DNA of 37,438 bases from a virus, in UHGV virus genome UHGV-0041833. One strand, given 5' to 3'. Made by a program: the position numbers and the translations under genes. The notes under the pieces were generated by a model. The model worked only from the letters and a program-made list of their open reading frames with translations, was not told the origin of the DNA and ran no database searches. Below are positions 2,150 to 17,754 of the stretch, one piece after another (positions within the stretch are counted from its first letter, which is position 1; each line of letters opens with the position of its first letter).

Positions 2150-3313
2150 AGCCTTTTTATCCTTGATACTTGCCCTCCCATCATACTCTTTCAAGTATTG
2201 TCCATAGTGCCTGAATAACATTTCAGGCCCTTTATGGCCCATTTGAGCCGCAAGCCAAAACAGGTTTGCTCCCCGGCTGATATGGCTGGTGGCGAATGTA
2301 TGCCTGGTTTGATATGGGTTTCTGTAACGAATACCTGCTTTTCGCAATGTTGGCACCCATGCTTTTTTCCTAATTGCATCAGCACTTGCCCAGGGTTTAT
2401 TGGTCTTTGGATCTTCAAAGACAGTAGCATCCTTCATGAATGTAAATGGCTTCTGGTTTATCAACGCCAACATTGCTTCTTCAGTCAGTTCAACTTTACG
2501 GGTACCGGCTTTTGTCTTTGTTCCTTTGATAACTCCGACAACACTTGCGCTCTGAACATGGGCTGTTTTTCCAACAAAGTCGATATCATGCCATCGTAGG
2601 GCACATAATTCAGAACTACGCAGGCCTGTATGTATGGCGAACCGGAACAGATTTTCCCATTGTTTGTTTCCGGCTGCTGCTAGTAATGCATCAACTTCTG
2701 CTGGTGATAGCGGATCAACCACATAGCTGCTTTCTGCTTCTGACTTATCACTTTGGTAGCGCGAAGCTGTTACTAACGATACGGGGTTAATTTGAAGTAC
2801 CCCATCGGTCACGGCTTCATCAAGTGCTGACCGTAGGAAAGATAACTGGTTGCGAATGGTTTTTAAGGTTGTTTTCTGGCTTTGAATCCACGCTTTCAGG
2901 GTTGCTGGTGTTAATTCACTTGCAGGGCAAATGTGAAGTGAGGCTAACGCACTACGGCATTTTTTATAGCCACCAATCGTAGAGGGTGAAAGTTTTCTTG
3001 TTTCGCAGATTTCAAGATATTCGTCCAGGTACATCTTTACCGTTTTGCTTGCAGCAGCATTACCAAAAATTTTCAAACGAGCAGAACGGGGAAAATATTC
3101 TGCATAAATGAATGTTCCCCTTTCGATCTTATTATGGATTTCGCCGAGTGTACGCTCGGCGTATTTAATGTTCTTTGGTGTTACTTCCAGATTGGAAAGC
3201 GGCTCACGACATCTAACTCCTTTGTAGGTGAAAGTTATATTGATCGTTTCTCCCTGGTGGTGTTTCCTGATTGTTACGCCGCGCGGTAGTTTGAGCAGTT
3301 TTGTCTGGCCCAT
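2141..3313 (-). CDS. int: Tyrosine integrase (phage integrase family with N-terminal arm-binding domain)
   Basis: 390 aa; ATG at 3313 with GAGG SD; C-terminal catalytic region with R...H..R...Y-type motifs (HTFATSHISRGANL, FRHYGQY); overlapped at its 5' end by the xis ORF. Confidence 0.9.
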   Translation of the reverse strand: MGQTKLLKLPRGVTIRKHHQGETINITFTYKGVRCREPLSNLEVTPKNIKYAERTLGEIHNKIERGTFIYAEYFPRSARLKIFGNAAASKTVKMYLDEYLEICETRKLSPSTIGGYKKCRSALASLHICPASELTPATLKAWIQSQKTTLKTIRNQLSFLRSALDEAVTDGVLQINPVSLVTASRYQSDKSEAESSYVVDPLSPAEVDALLAAAGNKQWENLFRFAIHTGLRSSELCALRWHDIDFVGKTAHVQSASVVGVIKGTKTKAGTRKVELTEEAMLALINQKPFTFMKDATVFEDPKTNKPWASADAIRKKAWVPTLRKAGIRYRNPYQTRHTFATSHISRGANLFWLAAQMGHKGPEMLFRHYGQYLKEYDGRASIKDKKALF

Positions 3314-3521: not shown

Positions 3522-4388
3522 TTAACGAATAGTGTCGTTACTTTGAAGTACAGCAAATGCCATTAATACTTCTAAAGTATATCTTCTATAAAATTTAACA
3601 AAACCAACATAGAAAACATAGACGAAGAAAAAGCTAAGCATTATTGAAAGTAAACTATAAAGATAATCACTATGAGTACATAATCGATAAATAAAGGTTG
3701 GAACTGATACCCAAAATGAAATTATAAAGATTAAACATATGTTTCTGCAAAAACCATATAATGCAACATAGTTTTGAATTTTTGTTTGATGTTGTTTTGA
3801 AAACTCATAAACATAATGATATGCCAATCTGAAGAGATCATCATCAAGTCCGTTTTTATCTTGTAATAATTGGCGATTTGTTATGAACTTTTTCTCATAA
3901 CCTTCTTTGATCATTAACCATGTTGTATTAGCTAAATGAAATGGTAGAGATTGAGAATAACATAGTTTTTGTGTTATAAAATCCCATAGTATTATTGGAC
4001 ATAATACGCATTTGATTATGCGATTCTTTATTTTTGTTTTTTTATCAGCGCTTCTCTCATCGCATGATGGGCTACAAATGCTTTCTGAGGTATCTATCAA
4101 TTTTTTAAATAGATATTTGGAAGGATATCCTAATTCTTTATTCATGTATTTTTCGATAAAAAATGCTGACGTGATAGAAATAAAATGTCCAGCTATATAA
4201 GATATAATAACTATTGAAGCGTAGTTCAAAATGCCAAAGATTTGACTTTGACCTCTGAGCAATTCACTTAAGTCAATAACAATATCTAGATCGAATGTCA
4301 AACCACAGAAATACATTAATAGGATAAAAAAACCACCTGGTATTAAATATCCAAGAAAGTCATAGAATGAGAATGGATTTTGATTCAT
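3522..4388 (-). CDS. Polytopic inner-membrane protein of unknown function (AT-rich cargo gene upstream of xis-int)
   Basis: 288 aa from ATG 4388 with GGAGA SD; several hydrophobic helices at N- and C-termini; strongly AT-rich; 108-bp AT-rich upstream intergenic region with promoter-like hexamers. Confidence 0.6.
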   Translation of the reverse strand: MNQNPFSFYDFLGYLIPGGFFILLMYFCGLTFDLDIVIDLSELLRGQSQIFGILNYASIVIISYIAGHFISITSAFFIEKYMNKELGYPSKYLFKKLIDTSESICSPSCDERSADKKTKIKNRIIKCVLCPIILWDFITQKLCYSQSLPFHLANTTWLMIKEGYEKKFITNRQLLQDKNGLDDDLFRLAYHYVYEFSKQHQTKIQNYVALYGFCRNICLIFIISFWVSVPTFIYRLCTHSDYLYSLLSIMLSFFFVYVFYVGFVKFYRRYTLEVLMAFAVLQSNDTIR

Positions 4389-14155: not shown

Positions 14156-14908
14156 ATGAACCTTGAAGCCTTACCGAAATATTACTCCCCAAAATCTCCA
14201 AAATTGAGCGATGACGCATCGGCGACAGGCTCGGGTGGTTTAACAATTACGGATGTAATGGCTGCGCAGGGGATGGTGCAGTCGAAAGCACCGCTTGGGT
14301 TTGCCTTATTCCTGGCAAAAGTTGGTGTTCAGGATCCTCAGTTTGCGATTGAAGGCCTGCTCAATTACGCGATGGCACTGGATAACCCGACATTGAACAA
14401 ATTGAGTGAAGAAACCCGGTTACAGATCATCCCTTACCTTGTGAATTTTGCCTTTGCTGATTATTCCAGGTCTGCGGCAAGTAAGGCTCGCTGTGAGCAT
14501 TGTACTGGTACTGGATTTCATAATGTATTGCGCGAAGTGGTGAAACATTCCAGAAGCGGGGAATCCGTTATCAAAGAAGAGTGGGTGAAGGAACTGTGTC
14601 AGCATTGTCATGGCAAGGGAGAAGTCAGCACGGCGTGCAGAGGGTGTAAGGGTAAAGGTATTGTCCTGGATGAAAAAAGAACCCGGCTTCATGGCACGCC
14701 TGTTTATAAGACTTGTGGGCGTTGCAATGGAAACCGGTTTAGCCGTTTACCGACTACACTGGCACGACGTCATGTCCAGAAGCTGGTTCCAGACCTGACT
14801 GATTATCAGTGGTACAAAGGATATGCAGACGTAATTGATAAACTAGTAACAAAGTGCTGGCAGGAAGAAGCATATGCTGAAACACAATTGAGAAAGGTGA
14901 CGAGATAA
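14156..14908 (+). CDS. Late-gene antiterminator Q (zinc-finger type)
   Basis: 250 aa from ATG 14156 (GGAG SD); several CxxC/CxxG zinc-binding pairs; last gene before the late promoter/terminator and lysis genes. Confidence 0.7.
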   Translation: MNLEALPKYYSPKSPKLSDDASATGSGGLTITDVMAAQGMVQSKAPLGFALFLAKVGVQDPQFAIEGLLNYAMALDNPTLNKLSEETRLQIIPYLVNFAFADYSRSAASKARCEHCTGTGFHNVLREVVKHSRSGESVIKEEWVKELCQHCHGKGEVSTACRGCKGKGIVLDEKRTRLHGTPVYKTCGRCNGNRFSRLPTTLARRHVQKLVPDLTDYQWYKGYADVIDKLVTKCWQEEAYAETQLRKVTR

Positions 14909-14939
14909 GTGATTTTCGCCGAAGATAGTGACATGAAGC

Positions 14940-14968
14940 TTGCATTTTTCAAAAAATATGGATAAGAT
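14940..14968 (+). promoter_or_regulatory. Candidate late promoter (PR'-like): -35 TTGCAT, 17-bp spacer, -10 TAAGAT
   Basis: Hexamers read directly; located between Q and a downstream intrinsic terminator, as in lambdoid late regions. Confidence 0.4.
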
Positions 14969-15014
14969 TTTCTCAACGATGGGCTTTGTATGTCTGCCGT
15001 TGATAATTTTCACG

Positions 15015-15040
15015 AACCCGCTGTTGAGCGGGTTTTTATT
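15015..15040 (+). terminator. Intrinsic terminator (tR'-like) downstream of the late promoter
   Basis: aacccgc tgttga gcgggtt stem-loop followed by TTTTT. Confidence 0.6.
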
Positions 15041-15093
15041 TACTTGTACTGAAACACATTATATAACCTCATATCAGTTAAAAAGGAGGTTGT

Positions 15094-15429
15094 ATGATTA
15101 ATGCCGTTGAGTACAGATTACCGTTAGGAAATATCTCTCCAGAGAATCTTGACGCGTTGTCAGAACTTATCGTTAAGCATTCCGATAAATTTAATAACTA
15201 TGTACTTAGTTCTATTTCTGATGATGATATTCGATATTCTTACGATTACTACAATTTTGAAATCACAGAGATAGATGAATATGGGTTTCACTTTATAGCA
15301 CCATATAGCTATTATGAAGGATGCGTTGACAATAACTTCTCAGGAGAGGTTGAAGGTTATGCAGAATACGAAATTATTGATAATGAATTAGTCTTCTCTC
15401 TTGAGGAACTACCTTGGGATGTAAAATAA
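15094..15429 (+). CDS. Small highly acidic, Tyr-rich protein of unknown function (moron between Q and holin)
   Basis: 111 aa; strong AAGGAGG SD; AT-rich; no signal peptide or TM segment; own terminator. Confidence 0.6.
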   Translation: MINAVEYRLPLGNISPENLDALSELIVKHSDKFNNYVLSSISDDDIRYSYDYYNFEITEIDEYGFHFIAPYSYYEGCVDNNFSGEVEGYAEYEIIDNELVFSLEELPWDVK

Positions 15430-15440
15430 ATATCAATAAT

Positions 15441-15470
15441 AAAGGCCGTAACGAACGGCCTTTATTATTA
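15441..15470. terminator. Hairpin terminator after the acidic moron (9-bp perfect stem, A/T-flanked, potentially bidirectional)
   Basis: aaaggccgt aacga acggccttt followed by attatta. Confidence 0.6.
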
Positions 15471-15481
15471 TAAAATCATCA

Positions 15482-15886
15482 ATGCCTGATGAATTAGAAT
15501 GTAATTTTCGAATTAATAATAAATCAACATATCATTTCACGCTCCGATTTTCTGTCGGAGGCGAAACTGCGGCTATTCATATGCACGAAAAAGAGAATCT
15601 TGCCGGAGCGTTCTGGCTTGTTTTGCTGATCATCGCAGGTTGGGGGGGGCTTGTCCGTTACCTGATTGATGTGAAGCAGAGTAAAGCAACGTGGAGCTGG
15701 ATAAATGCCCTCGCTCAGATAGTTGTATCAGGATTCACCGGTGTTATTGGTGGCCTAATCAGTATCGAAAGTGGATTCAGTATTTACATGATTCTCGCAA
15801 CTGCGGGGATTAGTGGTGCGATGGGTTCGGTTGCACTGACGTACTTCTGGGAACGACTGACAGGGGTGAAAAATGCAAAATCTTAA
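15482..15886 (+). CDS. Holin (three predicted TM helices)
   Basis: ORF from ATG 15482 (134 aa) with internal ATG 15581 (101 aa); three hydrophobic helices; immediately upstream of and overlapping the endolysin gene. Confidence 0.7.
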   Translation: MPDELECNFRINNKSTYHFTLRFSVGGETAAIHMHEKENLAGAFWLVLLIIAGWGGLVRYLIDVKQSKATWSWINALAQIVVSGFTGVIGGLISIESGFSIYMILATAGISGAMGSVALTYFWERLTGVKNAKS

Positions 15887-16349
15887 TCCTCAGCGTAAAG
15901 CTTTCCTCGATATGGTGGCCTGGTCAGAAGGAACGGATAATGGGCTACAACCGACACGTAATCATGGTTATGACGTCATTGTGGGCGGAGAAATATTCAC
16001 TGATTACTCCGATCACCCTCGCAGACTTGTCACGCTAAACCCAAAACTCAAATCAACGGCTGCCGGGCGCTACCAGCTTCTTTCCCGCTGGTGGGATGCA
16101 TACCGTAAACAGCTTGGACTGAAAGACTTCTCTCCAAAAAGCCAGGATGCTGTTGCACTGCAGCAGATTAAAGAGCGTGGTGCTTTACCGATGATTGATC
16201 GCGGTGATATTCGTCAGGCTATCGACCGTTGCAGCAATATCTGGGCTTCACTGCCGGGAGCTGGTTATGGTCAGTTTGAGCATAAGGCTGACAGCCTGAT
16301 TGCAAAATTCAAAGAAGCCGGCGGAACGGTCAAAGAGATTCAGGTATGA
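15873..16349 (+). CDS. R: Endolysin, lambda R-type lytic transglycosylase
   Basis: 158 aa; near-identical over long stretches to lambda R as recalled ([17 protein letters not shown] ... [121 protein letters not shown]). Confidence 0.9.
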
Positions 16350-16783
16350 GCAGAGTAACGGTGATTATATCCGCTCTGGTTATCTGCATCATCGTCTGCT
16401 TGTCATGGGCTGTTGATAATTACCGTGATGACGCCATCGTCTACAAAGTACAGCGCGATAAAGCCACATCCATCATCGCTGATATGCAGAAGCGTCAACG
16501 TAATGTAGCTGAACTCGATGCCAGATATACAAAGGAGCTTGCTGATGCTAATGCGACTATCGAAAGTCTTCGTGCTGATGTTTCTGCTGGGCATAAGCGC
16601 CTGCAAGTCGCCGCCACCTGTACAAAGTCAACGACCGGAGCCAGCGGCATGGGCGATGGAGAAAGCCCTAGACTTACAGCAGATGCTGAACTCCATTATT
16701 ACCGTCTCCGAAGTGGAATCGACAAGATAACCTCACAGGTCAATTACTTGCAGGAGTATATCAGGACGCAATGTCCCAACTAA
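16346..16783 (+). CDS. Rz: Rz i-spanin
   Basis: 145 aa; N-terminus [22 protein letters not shown] as in lambda Rz; ATGA overlap with R. Confidence 0.85.
16545..16730 (+). CDS. Rz1: Rz1 o-spanin lipoprotein embedded in the +1 frame of Rz
   Basis: 61 aa; AAGGAG SD 8 nt upstream; lipobox LLGISAC followed by a Pro-rich segment. Confidence 0.7.
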
Positions 16784-16880
16784 TCACATTTTGAGGATAT
16801 TTAACGTCTATGCTTTAATGATTTTATTCATTGTTTTATAATCGCGAAGAATAATGATGAACTTGGCAAAGGATATGATT

Positions 16881-17105
16881 ATGCGTATTAAACCTCAAGA
16901 TTTTAAGTTTGATGTGTTGACTGTTGCTGGTTACGCTAACCCTAAAGCTAAAACACATTTCGCACCTTCTGCTTCTGGATTTAATTTTAAATGGGAGTGG
17001 GAAGGGAAAATTTATGAGCTTCATATCGAGCAAGAAAAATTACAGTACCCTGATTTTATTCTTGAACGACTTTTTGATGCCGCAATTGAGATGGCTAAAA
17101 AATGA
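16881..17105 (+). CDS. Small hypothetical protein (AT-rich cargo gene after the lysis cassette)
   Basis: 74 aa from ATG 16881 (AAGGA SD; track ORF begins at 16854); no TM or signal peptide; AT-rich. Confidence 0.45.
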   Translation: MRIKPQDFKFDVLTVAGYANPKAKTHFAPSASGFNFKWEWEGKIYELHIEQEKLQYPDFILERLFDAAIEMAKK

Positions 17106-17145
17106 CAAAAATCACCGGATGGGTTTTTTGTTTATAGATATTCAC

Positions 17146-17197
17146 ACATAGCCCTTGCATCTAGAACAGAAAATCTTGTCATGGCGCGGGGCTATGT
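17146..17197. repeat. 9-bp inverted repeat acatagccc / gggctatgt with 34-nt spacer between the convergent cargo genes
   Basis: Direct reading; possible bidirectional terminator or protein-binding site. Confidence 0.3.
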
Positions 17198-17211
17198 TAG
17201 CAAAAATTTAT

Positions 17212-17652
17212 TTAATAGGATATTTTGTTTGCAGATTTAAGCTCTTTAAGAGTAGCGTCAAGTATATGTAAAAATAGAGAAGTGTCGCCATACTCATAAT
17301 GTGGCTCGGATTTGTATTCTCTAATATAAATAAATCCACCTTTGGATAAAAATAAATCAATCAGCTCGTTGTTATTTTCATCGGTTGGGTCAATGGCAGC
17401 AAACTTCAATACAGGAGCTTCATCAATGACTAGCAGTGTTTCTTTGAAAATAAGTTCTAGTTCATATGTTGAAAGTTTGAGGGTTAACCTATTTTTTTTA
17501 TCTTTATTGAAAATTATTGTGTCGCCAAGAAAATCGTATTCAGAGCTTGAGTCAATAATGTTATTCTTAAGTTTGAGAGATATTGCATCTAAAGCCTTTT
17601 TATGCTCTGCGCACTTAACAACTTTATGAACATCTAAACTGGGGATACTCAT
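17212..17652 (-). CDS. Hypothetical soluble protein, reverse-oriented AT-rich cargo gene
   Basis: 146 aa from ATG 17652 with AGGTGG SD 7 nt upstream (track ORF begins at TTG 17715); opposite strand to all flanking phage genes. Confidence 0.55.
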   Translation of the reverse strand: MSIPSLDVHKVVKCAEHKKALDAISLKLKNNIIDSSSEYDFLGDTIIFNKDKKNRLTLKLSTYELELIFKETLLVIDEAPVLKFAAIDPTDENNNELIDLFLSKGGFIYIREYKSEPHYEYGDTSLFLHILDATLKELKSANKISY

Positions 17653-17754
17653 AATACAACCACCTATGTAAGAACTAAAGAGCATTGAGTCTATGTGATT
17701 AATATCAAGACCCAATTAAATTTTTTAAATTATTAGAGTTAGATCCCACTTTAA

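Follow-up and report, generated by a model that had tools for sequence, protein, structure and literature searches.

The virus genome UHGV-0041833, a stretch of 37,438 nucleotides (nt) that is analysed here in full and referred to as the window, carries between the late antiterminator gene Q and the holin gene a short AT-rich cassette with a gene for a strongly acidic protein of 111 amino acids (aa). Judged by its sequence, the window is an SfV-like prophage of extraintestinal Escherichia coli. The 601 bases around the cassette are 100% identical to the chromosomes of strains UTI89, S88, IHE3034, NU14, APEC O18 (APEC, avian pathogenic E. coli) and DSM 30083, the last being the E. coli type strain, and the prophage layout combines an e14/CPS-53-like early region, an HK97-type head, a P27-type terminase and a contractile tail. 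The elements of the locus follow one another in the order Q, late promoter PR' with the lambda pause element, a leader of ~65 nt, terminator tR', cassette and holin, and the region holds three terminator-like sites against 0.6 expected from shuffled sequences. The features from Q to the end of the cassette are the following (bp, base pairs; GC, guanine plus cytosine; ORF, open reading frame; Stx, Shiga toxin).

14156-14908, plus strand: late antiterminator Q of the Q-lambda family (PF03589, homology to lambda Q, RefSeq WP_001047143.1 'antitermination protein')
14940-14968, plus strand: late promoter PR', TTGCAT (14940-14945), 17-nt spacer, TAAGAT (14963-14968)
14975-14983, plus strand: inferred transcription start (~14975) and putative sigma70-dependent pause element AACGATGGG (-10-like plus GGG), from the 12-mer shared with lambda
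14973-15003, plus strand: first predicted hairpin of the PR' leader RNA, sequence conserved in SfV and an Stx2c phage
15014-15043, plus strand: intrinsic terminator tR', stem 15014-15035 followed by TTATTTACT
15041-15532, plus strand: AT-rich inserted cassette, 490 bp, 32% GC, delimited by alignments with SfV, an Stx2c phage and PhiR47_2
15039-15068, plus strand: promoter-like blocks, TTTACT, 15 nt, TATATAACC (alternatively TTTACT-17-TATAAC)
15083-15090, plus strand: ribosome-binding site AAGGAGGT, 4 nt ahead of the ATG, with GGAGGTT invariant in four lineages
15094-15429, plus strand: ORF of the acidic soluble 111-aa protein (WP_000606308.1, RefSeq 'hypothetical protein'; UniProt J7QCH0; PHROG 13663)
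15435-15469, both strands: cassette terminator, 15-bp perfect stem with the G+C core AAAGGCCG, 5-nt loop, U-rich tail
15470-15532, plus strand: AT-rich cassette tail with a small hairpin, lacking a counterpart in the Salmonella and Citrobacter cassettes

The late control region

The product of Q matches Pfam PF03589 with an expect value (E) of 3e-54 and is 35% identical to lambda Q (E 1e-43). PF03589 defines the Q-lambda family, which is structurally unrelated to the Q21 family, PF06530 (PMC9388147). An earlier note on this DNA, made from the letters alone, had placed a promoter TTGCAT-17-TAAGAT downstream of Q, and this element is indeed there. It is taken as the real PR' because it stands in the lambda register to a 12-mer, CTCAACGATGGG, that is identical in the window and in the +1 region of lambda PR'; lambda reads TTGACT-17-TAAATT-TGACTC-AACGATGGG and the window TTGCAT-17-TAAGAT-TTTCTC-AACGATGGG. 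In lambda, the 12-mer covers the transcription start and the -10-like sigma-dependent pause element where Q loads, and on this likeness the window PR' has such a putative pause element in its initial transcribed region. The whole promoter is invariant in an alignment with SfV and an Stx2c phage. Measured against the consensus it is weak (7/12 matches) and absent from the list of a promoter scanner, which gave the overlapping GTGACA-18-AAAAAT (14928-14957) instead. The latter was rejected as PR', since the conserved AACGAT pause element would then fall at about +11, off the lambda register.

The strong intrinsic terminator that had been proposed downstream of the promoter was confirmed as a 9-bp stem (15014-15035) with a T-tract, a folding free energy (dG) of -14.9 and a z score of -4.2; none of 200 shuffles folded as well, and in SfV a hairpin homologous to tR' was annotated as a terminator by the depositors. 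The leader (14970-15050) folds as two hairpins (dG -25.9, z -4.5), from which we infer that the segment from PR' to tR' (14975-15043) would yield a constitutive two-hairpin RNA of ~65 nt. By analogy, this RNA would be the counterpart of the lambda 6S RNA and of the PR'-derived small RNA of Stx phages. A regulatory RNA of the latter kind is mentioned as reported for Stx phages in PMC8065619. An Rfam scan of 14700-15700 gave nothing above the gathering score, and the leader, which is conserved in SfV and Stx2c phages, is thus without a family. With Q, a promoter with pause element and an intrinsic terminator, three of the four defining features of a lambda-type Q late control region are recognisable in the sequence, and the PR'/tR' arrangement that the earlier note had suggested is indeed present and of the lambda type. 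The logic of such a Q-dependent late cassette has been described (PMC9388147).

Q differs from lambda Q by a 48-aa insertion (14498-14644, residues ~115-163) that brings two extra CxxC pairs and matches the DnaJ_CXXCXGXG zinc-finger domain (E 9e-9). The insertion falls within the region equivalent to the zinc-ribbon 'arm' with which lambda Q contacts the Q-binding element.

An inserted cassette in the slot of the Shiga toxin genes

The Q/PR'/tR' module is shared with phages that carry other genes behind it. SfV, mEp460, Ayreon, PhiR47_1 and 15 Stx2c phages align only to query bases 1-138, that is, to the end of Q, PR', the leader and tR', and identity with them stops within ~10 nt past the T-tract of tR'. 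This terminator is the last element common to phages with other cargo, homology to SfV, the Stx2c phages and mEp460 ending ~5-10 nt past its stem. On the right, the holin module of PhiR47_2, a phage with the same holin but without the acidic gene, aligns from ~15533 on. Since the homology on the left ends after tR' and that on the right starts at ~15533, we delimited the cassette as 15041-15532. Its composition sets it apart as well, with a GC fraction of 0.32 for 15036-15481 and of 0.31-0.35 in 200-nt windows compared with ~0.5 on the flanks. The ORF has 33% GC compared with 50% for the window, which, together with the ribosome-binding site 4 nt before the ATG, bears out the earlier description of an AT-rich gene with a very strong Shine-Dalgarno sequence.

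Behind the same module, SfV carries orf47 and the 350-aa gene orf48, mEp460 two small ORFs and a methylase, and PhiR47_1 small ORFs and four tRNA genes. In the Stx2c phage PV98-693, whose Q-end/PR'/tR' module is 88% identical to that of the window, the slot holds a lipoprotein-like ORF, a methylase, two tRNAs, stx2A and stx2B (~2.6 kb downstream of the module) and then a 663-aa ORF, which is taken to be nanS-p-like. The statement that the gene occupies the slot of stxAB is therefore literally true for this Q allele, the module in PV98-693 preceding stx2A and stx2B. Because one and the same module precedes different genes in SfV, mEp460, PhiR47_1 and the Stx2c phages, the acidic gene is variable cargo. 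The counts in E. coli agree with its having been called cargo and not a part of the lysis cassette conserved in all relatives: 1022 genomes match part of the region and 131 of these have the cassette, which is absent from ~87%. Among 5426 complete E. coli genomes it is found in 131-132, as a single block of at least 99% identity. Its companions there are one and the same Q and holin, whereas endolysin and spanin change.

The cassette also brings signals of its own. Between tR' and the ATG, three blocks, GGGTTTTTATTTAC, TATATAACC and GGAGGTT, do not vary within the subfamily to which the E. coli gene belongs, represented by four lineages (one from Salmonella, one from Citrobacter and two from E. 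coli). The first two are always 15 nt apart though the sequence of the spacer differs, and insertions or deletions occur only past the second block. In the other subfamily, a perfect TTGACA, 15 nt and TA[AGT]G[AC]T stand in the same place, and altogether the upstream promoter-like blocks were seen conserved in nine aligned loci. As their spacing and sequence are kept while synonymous sites of the gene are saturated (proportion of synonymous differences, pS, ~0.8), selection on the blocks is implied, and the three together form the pattern expected of a -35 element, a -10 element and a ribosome-binding site. As a promoter the candidate is non-canonical, reading TTTACA-15-TATATA or TTTACA-17-TATAAC, without T at -7, and it is not on the list of the consensus scanner. 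For the second subfamily we considered whether TTGACA might be PR' itself. This was rejected, since the block stays with the gene when the type of Q in front differs and since each Q21-type locus appears to have a separate promoter-like site, pause-like element and hairpin.

At the other end, the predicted terminator of the cassette is strong and equally stable on both strands (dG -20.2, z -6.8 on the plus strand; -21.1, z -6.9 on the minus strand), with 0/200 shuffles as good; the scanner listed it on the minus strand. The perfect terminator stem reported for this place is present, but it is longer than the 9 bp given for it: a G+C core of 9 bp extends to 15 bp. Throughout the family, a hairpin with a T-tract lies 14-25 nt past the stop codon in 17 of 23 distinct loci and at 84 nt in one more, as counted with a strict finder that missed known hairpins including that of the window itself. 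Cassettes of the family elsewhere have 35-40% GC compared with 44-51% in their flanks.

In its sequence the cassette thus displays three of the four marks of a moron as defined in PMC8065619, namely insertion between genes that are adjacent or enclose other cargo in relatives, deviant composition and a terminator of its own, and we hold this architecture with high confidence. Foreign GC content, promoter-like blocks and a private terminator are the classical moron anatomy (PMC8065619), and they speak for an explanation in which the gene benefits the lysogen: it would be expressed from the repressed prophage and alter the host, for example by excluding competing phages or by inhibiting a host machine, and the slot would be merely permissive. 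The near clonality of the cassette in lineages of extraintestinal pathogenic E. coli (ExPEC) and APEC points the same way. A self-sufficient moron could sit anywhere, however, yet the family is found almost only after Q, as described below; furthermore, most known exclusion proteins carry a membrane or secretion signal, which this protein lacks, and PADLOC gave no match. We regard such a benefit to the lysogen as unlikely.

A family of acidic proteins

The 13-kDa protein has an isoelectric point (pI) of 4.05 and a net charge of -19, with 24 Asp and Glu residues against five Lys and Arg, and contains 12 Tyr. Its maximum hydropathy over 19 residues is 0.59, which indicates no transmembrane or signal segment, and its earlier characterisation as highly acidic, Tyr-rich and free of membrane or signal features holds in full. 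It matches the unnamed family PHROG 13663 (E 9e-54). Scans of the protein and of 25 family members against Pfam, NCBIfam and PADLOC gave nothing above noise (in PADLOC, library of 2023, no match at E 0.1 or better), sequence searches of the PDB with two profiles reached E 0.18 at best, and no paper on the protein accession or the locus tag was found in the literature. Homology to a structural or housekeeping protein, which would speak against the idea of cargo, was looked for and not found.

An exhaustive profile search among 1.8 billion representatives yielded 26 clusters at 50% identity, nearly all of ~110 aa, and an indexed search yielded 27 proteins, all named 'hypothetical'. The named hosts are Escherichia, Salmonella, Citrobacter, Enterobacter, Duffyella and Erwinia, the E. 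coli cluster including a copy from Shigella, and the family is confined to prophages of Enterobacterales. A tblastn search with two divergent members found no match in 50,697 phage genomes, phi80 included, the sole match among 72,556 plasmids was an episomal phage copy, and among 185,579 species-representative genomes the family was found only in Erwinia tracheiphila. Absent from the phage genomes and present in one species among the representatives, it is rare, strain-variable prophage cargo.

Two of these records deserve a separate mention. The circular record NZ_CP081716.1 of E. coli CX04 ('plasmid unnamed3', 37,667 bp, typed as a non-mobilizable plasmid) is a complete related SfV-like phage with the same acidic gene, and a chromosomal copy is also present in the strain. 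Either the sequenced culture contained phage genomes that had been excised or were replicating, which would make this type of prophage an active one, or the record is an assembly artefact. The E. tracheiphila member, found on 41 contigs, has 132 aa and 28% identity to the window protein. It adjoins a gene for a GbpA-like lytic polysaccharide monooxygenase in a decayed prophage remnant rich in insertion sequences, far from intact Q and lysis genes, and may have been domesticated or merely stranded there.

The E. coli, Salmonella and Citrobacter alleles differ at saturated synonymous sites (pS ~0.8) and at a proportion of nonsynonymous sites (pN) of ~0.18, and the ratio of nonsynonymous to synonymous substitution rates (dN/dS) of the closest pair is 0.28. 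By this measure of sequence divergence, the ORF is shown to be a real gene under purifying selection. In the family alignment, F33 is invariant and Y48, C77, Y92 and W108 are nearly so; also conserved are a Gly-Cys-x-Asp-x-Asn turn and a nearly invariant C-terminal LDETxW motif. All 25 members examined have a net charge between -9 and -20, and only five columns are consistently acidic, a pattern that points to a family keeping its overall charge while the individual acidic positions drift. The richness in Tyr is not family-wide (mean 7.2 Tyr).

Such acidity is what a DNA mimic would need, and it is the ground for an explanation in which the protein poses as DNA through its acidic surface and thereby inhibits a restriction enzyme or another nuclease, for example RecBCD acting on late concatemeric DNA. 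A net charge of -19 in 111 aa and an acidity held throughout the family while its positions drift are consistent with this, charge being a necessary and not a specific sign, and in relatives (SfV, mEp460, the Stx2c phages and some loci of the family) the slot is taken by orphan DNA methylases, which are a further means of countering restriction. Known DNA mimics, anti-restriction proteins and immunity proteins were nevertheless not among the sequence or fold matches, and no relation to a known mimic emerged from the profile, PDB or fold searches. The DNA-mimic and immunity ideas of the earlier note were guesses from composition, and mimicry of DNA is, in our estimate, distinctly doubtful.

Predicted structure

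An AlphaFold model built on a 25-sequence alignment has a mean predicted local distance difference test score (pLDDT) of 86.7 and a predicted template modelling score (pTM) of 0.77. Its topology is beta-alpha-alpha-beta5 with the last five strands antiparallel, and the predicted fold, a cystatin/NTF2-like alpha+beta cone, is confidently modelled. The last four residues fall below a pLDDT of 50 though they include the nearly invariant Trp (W108). The best fold neighbours are weak, ketosteroid-isomerase-like and SnoaL-like proteins among them, and none is informative; a Foldseek comparison with viral structures gave nothing at E 0.001 or better.

Alternatively, the protein might bind a small molecule or be an NTF2-like enzyme, for example a sponge for a signalling molecule. 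The modelled fold with its weak ketosteroid-isomerase-like and SnoaL-like neighbours and the near invariance of Cys77, Asp45, Asp79, Tyr48 and Tyr92 are in keeping with such a function, which we nonetheless consider very unlikely.

Position of the gene across prophages

Forty loci of the family were compared, made up of nine distinct assembly contexts and 31 IMG/VR loci, and in 38 of them the gene is first or early between Q and the lysis genes. In seven of the nine assembly contexts (Enterobacter, Duffyella, two Citrobacter, two Salmonella and one further assembly) it lies between Q and a holin, and a divergent second E. coli allele, found separately, occupies the same slot. The exceptions are the decayed prophage remnant of E. 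tracheiphila and an isolated copy near sbcB, and there is no counter-example within an intact prophage. In IMG/VR, Q is upstream in 31/31 loci, its end lying 130-340 nt before the gene in 29 and ~2.5 kb before it in two, and the endolysin starts 0.7-2.1 kb downstream in all 29 loci that are long enough. The loci are partly redundant, so that the independent contexts number nearer ten.

This position is kept behind four kinds of Q, namely Q-lambda, Q21 (PF06530/DUF1133, 192 aa), a 121-aa PF06530 protein and a 204-aa protein of no assigned family, and in front of holins of at least four Pfam families and endolysins of the GH24, GH19 or Phage_lysozyme type. The gene is thus not scattered cargo: it is almost always found in one slot, behind structurally unrelated Q types. 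Such fidelity to a single slot, combined with uniform acidity, is mildly surprising.

In four Q21-family (DUF1133) loci (L005, L016, L018 and L021), ~130-155 nt separate the stop codon of Q from the family gene, and a conserved leader past the stop codon, TAAATTGTGnTA[AG]GCTCGGGACGTTAAAGCGAACTGAGCA, is followed by a hairpin. Within these loci, TA[AG]GCT-CGGG resembles a -10-like pause element plus GGG, and a promoter-like site, TTGCAG-17-TTAAAT, overlaps the stop codon of Q; these elements are probably the PR', pause element and tR' of that Q type. Moreover, a 28-nt stretch with the tR' hairpin, TTAAGAACCCGCCACTGAGCGGGTTTTT (window 15012-15039; L018 ~3923-3950; L003 ~3110-3137), is identical in Q-lambda-type (Stx2c phage) and Q21-type (Salmonella prophage) modules whose Q genes and promoters are unrelated, and tR' may be a recombination linker between Q modules and the cargo downstream.

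Another explanation is a role in late-phase counter-defence. Here the protein, made first, would neutralise a defence of the host or of another prophage before late products (terminase, portal, capsid, tail) trigger it, comparable to AtiEcA. In keeping with this, the gene comes first or early after PR'/tR' in 38 of 40 loci although the Q families in front are unrelated, there is a precedent from the late operon of a lambdoid phage (PMC11364771), and the protein is small, acidic and binder-like. A gene with a purely late role, however, has no need of its own promoter or of a terminator that shuts it off from the holin. Furthermore, no cognate defence gene adjoins the acidic gene, and the search of phage genomes that included phi80 gave no sequence match. 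Late-phase counter-defence receives a small share of our belief.

Lysis genes and a second AT-rich island

Downstream of the cassette, the lysis genes are arranged as follows.

15581-15886, plus strand: holin, LydA-type, holin superfamily III, the first lysis gene (PF16083 E 1.5e-21, phrog_785, RefSeq start)
15873-16349, plus strand: endolysin, after the holin
16346-16783, plus strand: Rz (PF03245)

The RefSeq start of the holin (15581) is not the first ATG (15482) of its long ORF. As the homology to PhiR47_2 begins only at ~15533, the extension of 33 codons (15482-15580), which lies in the tail of the cassette, is probably untranslated. Within the holin gene itself, a hairpin at 15602-15617 resembles a terminator, probably by chance.

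A gene directly upstream of a holin might encode a lysis accessory, that is, an antiholin or a timing factor, and its size and acidity are also typical of immunity proteins, so that an orphan immunity protein has to be weighed with it. The variety of lysis genes that occur together with the family disfavours both. The loci feature holins of four or more families and endolysins of three types, other phages have the same holin but not the gene, and co-inheritance with one holin or endolysin was not seen; in addition, gene and holin are parted by a terminator, and the protein shows neither a membrane segment nor membrane targeting. As to immunity, no toxin domain is recorded beside the family gene at those loci whose genes had been called or annotated, where the neighbours are Q, a holin or a DNA methylase, the 31 IMG/VR loci having been compared with a Q/holin/endolysin/methylase panel only and not scanned for toxins. 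In Citrobacter, a colicin-like gene lies 2.7 kb off on the other strand with four genes between, and no Imm family of Pfam was matched. Both functions are extremely unlikely.

A second AT-rich island (31-37% GC, 16800-17750) lies between Rz and the HNH/terminase genes and is found in 105 of 5426 E. coli genomes. It carries an ORF on the plus strand (16854-17105; RefSeq: 75 aa) and one of 167 aa on the minus strand (17212-17715), the latter unannotated in the RefSeq record of UTI89, although the annotation of other strains has two hypothetical proteins at this place. The island has no Pfam, PHROG or PADLOC match. For taiEcA/atiEcA of phi80, a layout of this kind has been described, with an antisense gene breaking into the late operon shortly before the packaging module; tested for likeness to Tai, the antisense ORF of the island gave no tblastn match in phage genomes.

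Proposed explanation

Taken together, we propose that the locus is a self-contained, horizontally mobile moron cassette placed just behind the terminator of a lambda-type Q-dependent late region, and we give this explanation as a whole a probability of about one half. In the lysogen, PR' would fire constitutively and transcription would stop at tR', giving the two-hairpin RNA of ~65 nt, while the putative promoter of the cassette would supply a low level of Q-independent messenger RNA halted at 15469 before the holin. Upon induction, RNA polymerase modified by Q would pass both terminators from PR', and the acidic protein, encoded nearest to the promoter, would be made before any other late protein. 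A gene driven by Q alone would gain nothing from a terminator that separates it from the holin; the terminator does fit a need to stop Q-independent transcription at this point. Such two-tier expression, by analogy with that of stx, is probable, if less secure than the architecture itself.

The protein would then act stoichiometrically as a decoy that binds and blocks a positively charged partner, perhaps a protein, from the host or from a rival element, that binds nucleic acids or is of the defence type. We arrive at this mechanism because the net charge is conserved, there is no enzyme signature, and the C-terminal motif, conserved but disordered in the model, is typical of a docking peptide. 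That the protein inhibits by binding is put forward tentatively, as slightly the weaker side of an open bet; that it does so by mimicry of DNA specifically is much harder to believe.

Several points weigh against this proposal. No transcript, protein or phenotype data for the gene were found in the literature. The promoter-like element of the cassette is non-canonical (a 15-nt spacer, or a -10 element without the final T) and could be another regulatory element, in which case expression would be purely Q-dependent. The Gly-Cys-x-Asp-x-Asn turn and the invariant Tyr and Asp residues, set in a predicted NTF2-like cone, could indicate small-molecule binding or catalysis in place of protein binding. 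Moreover, the conservation of position could come in part from recombination via shared flanks and not from selection for late expression, since the 28-nt tR' hairpin is identical in Q-lambda-type and Q21-type modules, and the partly redundant loci may represent only some ten independent contexts.

A bolder extension of the decoy proposal would make the family a new class of 'leader' late proteins. In Q systems unrelated to one another, these acidic decoys would be translated first behind PR'/tR', fill the cell upon induction ahead of structural proteins and packaging intermediates, and disarm a host immune sensor or nuclease by nucleic-acid mimicry or ligand sequestration, a trickle from their own promoter pre-loading the lysogen. 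We consider this generalisation unlikely. The fixed place of the family behind structurally unrelated antiterminators suggests that the protein must come first among the late products to do its work.

The architecture of the late region is already known and ordinary to phage biologists; what is new is an uncharacterised protein family in the Stx slot. The slot between Q and the holin is where lambdoid phages put cargo that needs explosive, induction-coupled expression, with Shiga toxin as the medical example, and the same logic is met here in prophages of extraintestinal and avian pathogenic E. coli (UTI89, S88, IHE3034, APEC O18). Should the protein turn out to block a defence or a nuclease of the host, the known repertoire would gain a late-phase counter-defence, and should it benefit the lysogen, it would be a marker of the contribution of ExPEC prophages to fitness. 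With a cassette of 0.5 kb, a soluble protein of 13 kDa and an inducible prophage, the system is compact and easily tested.

Comparison with known systems

The predicted overall alpha+beta cone topology is one that the protein would share with cystatin/NTF2-like proteins such as VirB8/TraE-like domains, SnoaL/ketosteroid-isomerase-like proteins and cystatins. With T7 Ocr, ArdA, T4 Arn, Ugi and T7 gp5.9 it has small size and a very low pI in common, but it shows no sequence or fold similarity to them, its modelled topology being beta-alpha-alpha-beta5, and the context here is that of a late operon or of a promoter of its own and not of immediate-early expression. Another parallel is AtiEcA of phi80, which provides counter-defence from a Q-controlled late operon by neutralising the Tai system (PMC11364771). 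Both are small accessory proteins of lambdoid phages whose expression is, or in the window would be, tied to Q-dependent late transcription; Ati, however, lies upstream of the packaging module next to the antisense tai, whereas the window gene has no partner defence gene beside it.

The late control region resembles that of lambda in its PF03589 Q (35% identity), the 17-nt spacing of the promoter, the identical CTCAACGATGGG and an intrinsic terminator downstream. It differs in a leader of ~65 nt where lambda has 194 nt, in the 48-aa zinc-finger insertion in Q, in a weaker -35 element (TTGCAT) and in the cargo between tR' and the holin. Like the lambdoid morons from which the concept was derived (HK97/HK022), the cassette has deviant GC content, an insertion between genes, a private terminator and promoter-like blocks, but its promoter candidate is non-canonical, and the family departs from typical morons in being found at a single position although the backbones are unrelated.

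Compared with the stx locus, the cargo here is a single acidic cytoplasmic protein in place of a secreted AB5 toxin, and the cassette is free of tRNA genes and measures 0.5 kb where stx cargo takes up several kb. The slot itself is the same, in Stx2c phages it is preceded by the same Q-end/PR'/tR' module (88% identity), and the two-tier logic by which stx is expressed (PMC8065619) would, by analogy, be expected of the window cassette too.

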